11,155 nucleotides of DNA from a virus (lineage: Duplodnaviria; Heunggongvirae; Uroviricota; Caudoviricetes), in IMG/VR virus record IMGVR_UViG_2675903609_000003. The stretch is one strand, 5' to 3'. The notes under the pieces were generated by a model that saw nothing but the letters and a program-made list of their open reading frames with translations, had not been told where the DNA came from and did not search any database. Every line of letters begins with the position of its first letter. Position 1 is the stretch's first letter. Below, piece after piece: positions 3,063-3,626 of this stretch. The translations under genes and the position numbers were made by a program.

Positions 3063-3626
3063 ATGACTACTCTCCCAACCCTCTCTCAACCTGAAATTGC
3101 CATCGTTGATGGTTAGGCTGTTACTTCATCCCTGGCTGTTGCCAACTTCTTCTCTAAACGTCATGACGATGTTCTGAAAAAGATCCGCATTTTGGATTGT
3201 TCTCCAGAGTTTTGTGCCCGCAATTTTGCGGAGACATCAATTTTGGTACGCCAGCCCAACGGCGGTACTCGCAAACTTCCCTGCTACCAAATTACCCGCG
3301 GCGGCTTCGCCTTCCTTGCTATGGGCTTCACTGGTAAACGTGCCGCCCGGTTCAAAGAGGCATACATCAATGCCTTTAACCAGATGGAGAGGAGCTTATC
3401 AGGAGCTGGTGCGGCTGACATGTCATCTGTCGCACAAAACGCCAGAGGCGTATACCTGCATTTGCGTGAAATCCATCAAATCTGGACAAGCCAGCTTTAC
3501 CCAATGCTTAAGGCCGTTGAATCTCCGCTGGCTGGCAAACTGTACGACCGTGTAGGTGATGCTGTTTTTGGTGCTGCACTTGTTGATTCCAGGCTGAATG
3601 GTTCTGACAAGGAGGTGCGCCCATGA
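3063..3626 (+). pseudogene. rha: Rha-family phage regulatory protein, reading frame interrupted by in-frame TAG at 3114-3116
   Basis: ATG 3063 encodes MTTLPTLSQPEIAIVDG, then TAG, then the same frame continues AVTSSLAVANFFSKRHDDVLKKIRILDCSPEF...ITRGGFAFLAMGFTGKRAARFKEAYINAFNQME (Rha motifs). No ATG/GTG/TTG between the TAG and TTG 3192. Could be nonsense mutation, suppressor-dependent gene or sequencing error. Confidence 0.5.

Follow-up and report, generated by a model that had tools for sequence, protein, structure and literature searches.

When a stop codon stands in frame near the start of a phage regulatory gene, is it an error of the assembly, a codon that is still read through or the mark of a dead gene? 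A gene of the Rha family raises this question in an 11,155-nucleotide (nt) stretch of Caudoviricetes DNA (IMG/VR virus record IMGVR_UViG_2675903609_000003), referred to here, at its full length, as the window. At positions 3063–3626 on the plus strand, the gene occupies 187 codons, one of which is an amber codon, TAG. We conclude, with a probability of about 0.9, that this TAG is real and inherited, that it arose by a single C-to-T transition turning the CAG of Gln18 into amber, and that it inactivates a Rha-family regulatory gene, leaving an inherited pseudogene.

A glutamine codon replaced by amber

The rha frame begins with ATG at 3063–3065, meets TAG at 3114–3116 (+) after 17 codons and is open from there to TGA at 3624–3626, coordinates that the initial annotation had given correctly. 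It was also right that there is no canonical start between the TAG and about residue 44: the next in-frame ATG, GTG or TTG 3′ of the amber codon is TTG 3192 (residue 44), which is preceded by no Shine–Dalgarno sequence. Upstream of ATG 3063 the frame is open as far as 2286, because it crosses a translated leader open reading frame (ORF; ATG 2925) and two RNA genes, described below.

Read with glutamine at the TAG, the translation matches Pfam Phage_pRha (PF09669) at residues 21–110, over the full profile, with 91 bits against a cut-off of 29.9, and NCBIfam TIGR02681 at residues 12–113, with 87.8 bits against a cut-off of 45.95. Codon 18 aligns to approximately position 11 of the TIGR02681 profile, and profile positions 5–10 align to residues 12–17. 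The family signature had been thought to start right after the TAG; instead, conservation begins about eight residues earlier, at P10–G17, with the TIGR02681 match starting at residue 12. The frame across the domain is therefore not continuous, being broken at codon 18, and because the break lies inside the domain this copy is a pseudogene of the Rha family.

Relatives encode glutamine at this site. The codon is CAG in L001, L002, L003 and phage mEp460, and CAA in Salmonella phage ST64B. Each of the three Escherichia coli prophage relatives at 99.5%, 94.8% and 93.0% identity over 2900–3700 has CAG; relatives carrying CAG range from 99.5 to 86% identity. At the protein level, position 18 is covered by 120 of the 120 closest homologues. 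From a search of 1.84 billion cluster representatives that returned 9201 Rha relatives, we aligned the best 150 for conservation. Position 18 is filled in 149 of them, most often by Gln (60) and otherwise chiefly by Lys (28), Arg (16), His (15) or Glu (8); the lone representative that does not span it is a 104-amino-acid (aa) fragment. The comparison with intact homologues that the initial annotation had called for thus identifies Gln as the residue of close relatives and the commonest one overall, and homologues that naturally start downstream, which would have spoken for another interpretation, were not what it returned. Residues flanking position 18 are conserved (G17 in 129 of 149, T21 in 144 of 149 and S23 in 148 of 149), and 5′ of the TAG conservation across the 150 representatives extends to P10, hydrophobic residues at 12, 14 and 15, Asp or Asn at 16, and G17. 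A Dcm deamination hotspot was considered for the transition and rejected, as the sequence context, GGTCAGGCT, is not CCWGG.

The intact homologue P0012 was modelled with AlphaFold from a 60-sequence alignment (mean predicted local distance difference test score 91.8). In this model, strands are formed by residues 13–15 (β1), 18–22 (β2), 55–63 and 69–78, and helices by residues 23–29, 34–42, 48–54, 79–86 and 92–114, with a C-terminal helical hairpin in addition. Residue 18, the position of the amber codon, is the first residue of strand β2. A restart at residue 44 would cost β1, β2, two helices, the conserved KRHDDV motif and the invariant S23, F30 and H34. We could name no experimental structure for the Rha domain: searching the PDB by sequence brought no match, and with Foldseek the model had no PDB match with E below 0.03. 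Whether translation begins at the leader AUG (2925) or at that of rha (3063), it would end at 3116, and a stop 17 codons into rha, inside β2 of the N-terminal domain, would yield no folded Rha protein. We infer that rha function has been lost.

The amber allele in Shigella flexneri

The TAG is present in all eight of the NCBI records checked (CP026765, CP026871, LR213452, CP026772, UGYS01000001, AGRC01000020, CP024473 and CP026776). These S. flexneri loci are 99.94–99.97% identical to the window, and six of the records are chromosomes of about 4.5 Mb; by label, the TAG-bearing loci are L004, L008–L010 and L016–L023. The exact TAG-containing 33-mer also occurs in a further IMG/VR contig, UViG_2667527777_000002, which equals window positions 1–8208 save for three mismatches (473, 488 and 1628). 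On four Logan contigs a 63-aa ORF ending at the TAG is called; the three examined come from separate Sequence Read Archive (SRA) runs, seemingly years apart judged by accession numbers, and all read GGTTAGGCT.

Databases list the exact 127-aa product of the truncated gene as 'putative phage regulatory protein, Rha family [Shigella flexneri]'; it was found on at least 1000 contigs (1222 index blocks, of which eight hold contigs of more than 1 Mb). Outside Shigella, no identical match to the 61-mer around the codon was found among 468 matching complete E. coli genomes or among 20 matching phage records, the best matches to the TAG 61-mer in both sets differing from it by one base. Exact-pattern scans for the TAG allele in GTDB species representatives and JGI metagenomes returned nothing; the GTDB null is plausibly explained by the merging of S. 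flexneri into E. coli there.

Judged from these sequences, the TAG allele is a derived change characteristic of the S. flexneri prophage remnant. With CAG in relatives and the 61-mer unmatched in those E. coli and phage sets, the proposal of a nonsense mutation in rha is upheld. Its description as recent holds only in part, given that the allele is in eight of eight S. flexneri records and the truncated product on at least 1000 contigs. The rha locus in S. flexneri should be marked as a pseudogene in annotation. Database entries of 150 aa ('MULTISPECIES: Rha family transcriptional regulator [Shigella]', from CTG 3174) and 127 aa (from TTG 3243) hide the pseudogene.

An isrK/C4 leader cassette upstream of rha

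The DNA upstream of rha resembles the isrK locus of the Salmonella prophage Gifsy-1, described by Hershko-Shalev et al. in 2016 (PMC4825925). An isrK-like small RNA (seqA or a1b1 equivalent) at 2820–2896 (+) matches Rfam RF01394 over its full length with 58.1 bits against a gathering score of 50, and is closed by an intrinsic (Rho-independent) terminator at 2874–2896. It is followed at 2921–3008 (+) by a C4/CI/STnc1160-like antisense RNA, which matches RF01695 over its full length with 74.8 bits against a gathering score of 45 and overlaps the leader ORF. The relatives from E. coli and from phages reach 78.8–84.6 bits for RF01695 and Gifsy-1 reaches 69, and the pair of isrK and C4 elements is found in all relatives examined and in Gifsy-1. 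RF03163 (c4-a1b1) is above threshold in Gifsy-1 isrK only and is unreported for the window. The Gifsy-1 leader DNA aligns with window positions 2783–3065, including the promoter hexamers, the terminator, the leader AUG motif, the Shine–Dalgarno sequence and the cargo AUG. Homology with the relatives begins at about 2783, a mosaic boundary.

A putative isrK promoter lies at 2785–2813 (+), with −35 TTGATT at 2785–2790, a 17-nt spacer and −10 TACACT at 2808–2813. Aligned with the Gifsy-1 isrK locus and four further cassettes, these positions do not vary; the promoter scores 8/12, under the threshold of the promoter scan. The rha Shine–Dalgarno sequence, AGGGG at 3050–3054 (+), was read from the sequence 8 nt 5′ of ATG 3063, and the purine-rich block and the ATG are kept in six of six aligned cassettes, Gifsy-1 included. 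The AUG of anrP, the cargo gene of Gifsy-1, has been experimentally defined (PMC4825925). As the Gifsy-1 leader aligns up to and including this cargo AUG, ATG 3063 is the positional equivalent of an experimentally defined cargo start.

In Gifsy-1, some transcripts pass the isrK terminator and give a translationally silent messenger RNA (mRNA), which the short isrK RNA opens in trans; orf45 is then translated and ribosomes proceed into anrP, and AnrP increases antQ expression, whereupon the prophage is induced (PMC4825925). The same authors point to an analogy with seqA and CI RNA of P4 (PMC4825925). On the strength of the Rfam isrK and C4 matches, the Gifsy-1 alignment including the cargo AUG and this published mechanism, we recognize in rha, by sequence, the protein cargo behind a leader cassette with isrK and C4 RNAs, of the isrK–orf45–anrP type known from Gifsy-1. 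By analogy, the regulatory logic would carry over as well: isrK would open the leader in trans, the leader ORF would be translated, and ribosomes would reach the cargo, an antirepressor-like inducer.

AnrP (STM2616) was considered as a Rha homologue and rejected: BLASTP gave E = 0.15, and AnrP belongs to PF10543 (ORF6N), the window's cargo to PF09669. Because unrelated cargo proteins stand behind the same leader, the isrK/C4 leader is shown to behave as a portable cassette with exchangeable cargo, ORF6N in Gifsy-1 and Rha here. A literature search on an antirepressor role of Rha during prophage induction found nothing that concerned an isrK/C4–rha cassette specifically.

Tandem arrangements of such cassettes also occur. 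E. coli O121 201805972 carries three of them (L001, 1609–3109), as does locus L013. The first two in O121 are annotated as 'ash family protein' (219 aa) and have a weak Rha-like C-terminal part; this locus also has, upstream and adjoining cro, a BRO-N gene and a separate gene for a Rha regulator.

The leader reading frame and the 'Ash' domain

The leader ORF, at 2925–3116 (+), has 63 codons: 46 equivalent to orf45, followed in frame by the first 17 rha codons up to the amber codon. Its ATG at 2925 lies within the motif AATTATGGTGGGG, conserved with the first AUG of Gifsy-1 orf45. The 63-codon ORF is predicted by gene callers on Logan contigs and matches Pfam Phage_ASH. In the window, leader AUG and rha AUG share a frame, 138 nt apart and with no intervening stop. 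The same holds, at a distance of 138 or 141 nt, for all Rha-cargo cassettes examined (the window, L001, L002, L003, L006, L007 and L012). AUGA coupling, with a leader stop over the cargo AUG, is absent: the +1 frame, which ends at TGA 3064–3066, is open for only 4 codons.

Gene callers give the relatives proteins of 187 aa, 233–234 aa or 280–385 aa, the longest of which cross isrK and C4 and carry a match to Phage_ASH (PF10554). The 107-position Phage_ASH profile corresponds to translated residues 9–103 of window positions 2784–3113, that is, to the isrK and C4 leader plus the first rha codons. An invariant block, CCCTGTACGTCTCACCACC, translates to NPVRLTT in the window and to LYVSPP in L003 and Gifsy-1. 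With the frame differing in this way, what is conserved is the RNA, a conclusion also drawn by the Gifsy-1 authors (PMC4825925). From 2658 to 2925 the window lacks any start in the rha frame. A real N-terminal domain encoded by the open frame 2286–3116 was rejected as the main reading on three grounds: it would overlap the isrK and C4 RNAs, the frame of CCCTGTACGTCTCACCACC differs and there is no start between 2658 and 2925. It is likely that only the part of this frame from ATG 2925 is translated.

The 280–385-aa 'Ash + Rha' proteins are probably over-extended across the isrK and C4 RNA genes, and a correction is due where 'Ash' domain and long Rha coding sequences overlie the two RNA genes. 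Ash is still treated as a protein domain of unknown function in work on Stx and lambdoid phages (PMC8951638). RefSeq and GenBank entries of 280–385 aa that run across both RNA genes in the relatives go under the names 'Ash + Rha', 'peptidase' or 'Ant'. The 93-codon frame within window positions 2784–3113 (+) is open in just 1.5% of shuffles; the other two frames have 5 and 6 stops.

Further derived changes in the cassette

Four relatives served as outgroups to polarize the differences. On this basis, five derived changes of the window lineage fall in the 844-nt cassette and six in the next 5404 nt (binomial P = 0.010); the five in the cassette are common to all TAG-bearing records. Besides the amber mutation (3114 C>T), three of the four others look damaging, the fourth (3293 C>T) being synonymous. 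With 2837 T>G, the isrK-like RNA loses a predicted base pair and its predicted 5′ hairpin (−23.4 to −19.4 kcal/mol; Rfam score 61.9 to 58.1 bits). In the C4-like RNA, 2943 G>A breaks the first pair of hairpin 1 (−46.0 to −41.6 kcal/mol; 80.1 to 74.8 bits). With these two leader changes, predicted stability and Rfam scores are below those of the closest E. coli relative.

The third change, 3301 A>G relative to the four relatives, puts GGC (Gly80) at 3300–3302 (+) in place of GAC (Asp80) of the TRDGF motif. Among the invariant or near-invariant residues S23, F30, H34, T78, D80, G81, F82, F89 and G91, all are kept in this copy but D80. Position 80 is Asp in 140 and Asn in 7 of the 150 best representatives and Gly in none, and D80G is probably a second damaging derived change in the protein. 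The pattern of derived changes fits relaxed constraint on a dead cassette, although the numbers are small.

Alternative explanations for the stop codon

An error of base calling or assembly, one of the explanations first offered for the TAG, is extremely improbable: the window is a draft scaffold with a run of N at 10265–10369 and insertion sequence (IS) repeats at its ends, but the codon recurs in eight NCBI records, in an IMG/VR contig whose three mismatches are distant from it and in independent SRA assemblies, always together with the four other linked derived substitutions. Still less weight, to the point of being negligible, attaches to a TAG read as sense through an alternative genetic code or programmed recoding. 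None of 17 ORFs in the window ends in TAG, as such a code would allow; however, those 17 other ORFs have no in-frame TAG, the prophage has no transfer RNA (tRNA) with a CUA anticodon, the relatives have CAG at the site and the enterobacterial host uses the standard code. It is very unlikely that a functional, N-terminally shortened Rha is made from a start 3′ of the TAG, even though 150-aa (CTG 3174, RefSeq) and 127-aa (TTG 3243, GenBank) products have been deposited as ordinary proteins and the Phage_pRha match persists in the 127-aa product. The candidate starts have no Shine–Dalgarno sequence, and the shortened proteins lack β1, β2, helix 1 and all or part of helix 2, with S23, F30 and H34, which amounts to at least a quarter of the domain; among the 150 representatives so late a start occurs once, in the 104-aa fragment.

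The remaining alternatives keep some full-length protein. A hypomorph, in which an amber-suppressor tRNA or near-cognate read-through of UAG gives a low level of Rha and tRNA-Gln restores Gln18, is quite unlikely. By established genetics, CAG to TAG is the class of mutation corrected exactly by a Gln-inserting suppressor, the frame 3′ of the amber codon is still open, and the stops of the window (12 TGA and 5 TAA) include no TAG. On the other side, the absence of TAG from 17 stops is unremarkable for the rarest stop codon, none of the four prophage tRNAs (anticodons CAT, TCT, TGT and TCC) has a CUA anticodon, D80G lies downstream at a residue that is Asp in 140 of 150 representatives and Gly in none, and the two leader RNA elements needed for expression bear destabilizing changes. 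A related idea, unlikely as well, is that the amber codon serves as a dose attenuator, with read-through by tRNA-Gln keeping a trickle of a harmful, isrK-controlled Rha inducer rather than a null. If so, the loss of both Rha genes of the window (see below) would reflect selection that silences a pathway of prophage induction or toxicity while replication, Q, tRNA and lysis genes are kept.

Several observations weigh against the inherited pseudogene that we prefer. Read-through of UAG at a low level would most probably put Gln, the wild-type residue, back at position 18. An antirepressor role for rha is drawn by analogy from AnrP, an ORF6N protein with no homology to Rha. The cassette's excess of derived changes is based on 11 substitutions. 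Lastly, the genes between 3623 and 10264 are intact and have the lengths seen in relatives (a 77-aa ORF, O-like, DnaC-like and DnaB-like genes, ninH, Q, four tRNAs, holin and lysozyme), and the remnant is therefore not uniformly decayed. As for how the pseudogene became fixed, either drift or selection against a harmful inducer may account for it.

A prophage remnant bounded by insertion sequences

The window is a decaying prophage remnant of S. flexneri bounded by IS911 and IS600. Its left bound, positions 1–58, is the end of an IS911 copy, identical to L013 13439–13497, the 3′ end of an annotated IS911. This end truncates a toprim/primase gene, and relatives of the toprim gene match from position 53 onward only. 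The remaining toprim/primase–helicase ORF, at 123–1142, matches approximately the C-terminal half of its profiles (positions 372–618 of 801), and the nin-type genes NinB and NinE lie upstream of the early-operon cassette. The toprim remnant and the upstream nin-type genes suggest that the remnant is chimeric or rearranged and combines pieces of two replication modules. The left flank varies among S. flexneri chromosomes, which points to IS-mediated rearrangement. Directly upstream of the cassette, at 2117–2750 (−), Gp49 (HigB/RelE-like) and HTH_3 genes overlap where relatives hold other genes; the Gp49 gene is shortened in some S. flexneri gene calls (76–87 aa versus 109–111 aa).

At the right bound, positions 11098–11155 are the end of an IS600 copy (58 nt, 100% identical to the IS600 end in L014), and in S. 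flexneri chromosomes IS transposase genes continue beyond this point. The IS600 copy cuts a second, late-region Rha-family gene, at 10918–11100 (+), at codon 60. What is left of it is 95% identical to the N terminus of an intact 198-aa 'Rha family transcriptional regulator' of E. coli RMDEC465, encoded between the lysis genes and terminase. The two Rha genes that the window shows have thus been inactivated in different ways, one by the amber mutation and the other by IS600.

Downstream of the early rha, the 77-aa ORF at 3623–3856 (+) has an ATG that overlaps the rha TGA (ATGA) and a strong Shine–Dalgarno sequence of its own, AAGGAGGT, at 3609–3616. The ORF has the same length in relatives and is followed by O-like, DnaC-like and DnaB-like replication genes. 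Since it has its own AAGGAGGT, the loss of translational coupling need not silence it; Rho-dependent polarity across the 510 untranslated nt of rha is possible. The four tRNA genes, at 8150–8460 (+), lie 3′ of Q, with anticodons CAT (Ile in the annotation of relatives), TCT (Arg), TGT (Thr) and TCC (Gly). Farther along, the scaffold gap of 105 N at 10265–10369 falls inside the Rz/lysis gene, where relatives have 54 nt, and because of it the ORF at 10182–10715 is not to be trusted. A tandem duplication in Rz was rejected as the cause of the 51-nt difference in length, the difference being the N run.

Comparison with known systems

The locus is laid out like Gifsy-1 isrK–orf45–anrP, with a promoter, isrK and its terminator, a C4/STnc1160-like element, a leader ORF from AAUUAUGGUGGGG, a Shine–Dalgarno sequence and a cargo AUG. 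It differs from Gifsy-1 in that the cargo is a dead Rha instead of the ORF6N protein AnrP, in that the leader joins the cargo in frame, whereas orf45 stops on the cargo AUG (AUGA coupling), and in that the Q gene lies downstream of the cassette rather than upstream. In having a C4-family RNA (RF01695) in the leader of an antirepressor-type gene, it also resembles immI of P1 and P7 (c4, icd and ant) and the CI RNA and seqA–seqC of P4; unlike immI, it has no icd-like gene and its cargo is Rha, not Ant.

The Rha family itself (PF09669, TIGR02681) is defined by rha of φ80 and orf201 (rha) of P22, and a read-through product of the amber copy would belong to the same family. Rha takes its name from a phenotype, inhibition of the growth of lambdoid phages in IHF-deficient hosts, according to the summary given in PMC4936722. 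The IS-truncated second rha of the window has the P22-like late position between lysis genes and terminase. Unlike rha of φ80 and P22, the amber copy is a pseudogene and is preceded, in the early region, by an RNA leader.

As a mutation, the amber codon is of the same class, and has the same consequence, as laboratory amber mutants (CAG to TAG, suppressible with Gln by supE-type suppressors). Unlike these, it is of natural origin and common to S. flexneri isolates, with no evidence of a suppressor host. It likewise accords with the pseudogene formation and IS expansion known from Shigella, being a point-mutation pseudogene in an IS-bounded remnant, with nothing distinctive about it. We therefore regard the early rha as a nonsense pseudogene of the ordinary, inherited sort, carried by a Shigella prophage remnant in decay and of a kind already known and of low novelty: one routine example more of prophage decay in Shigella.

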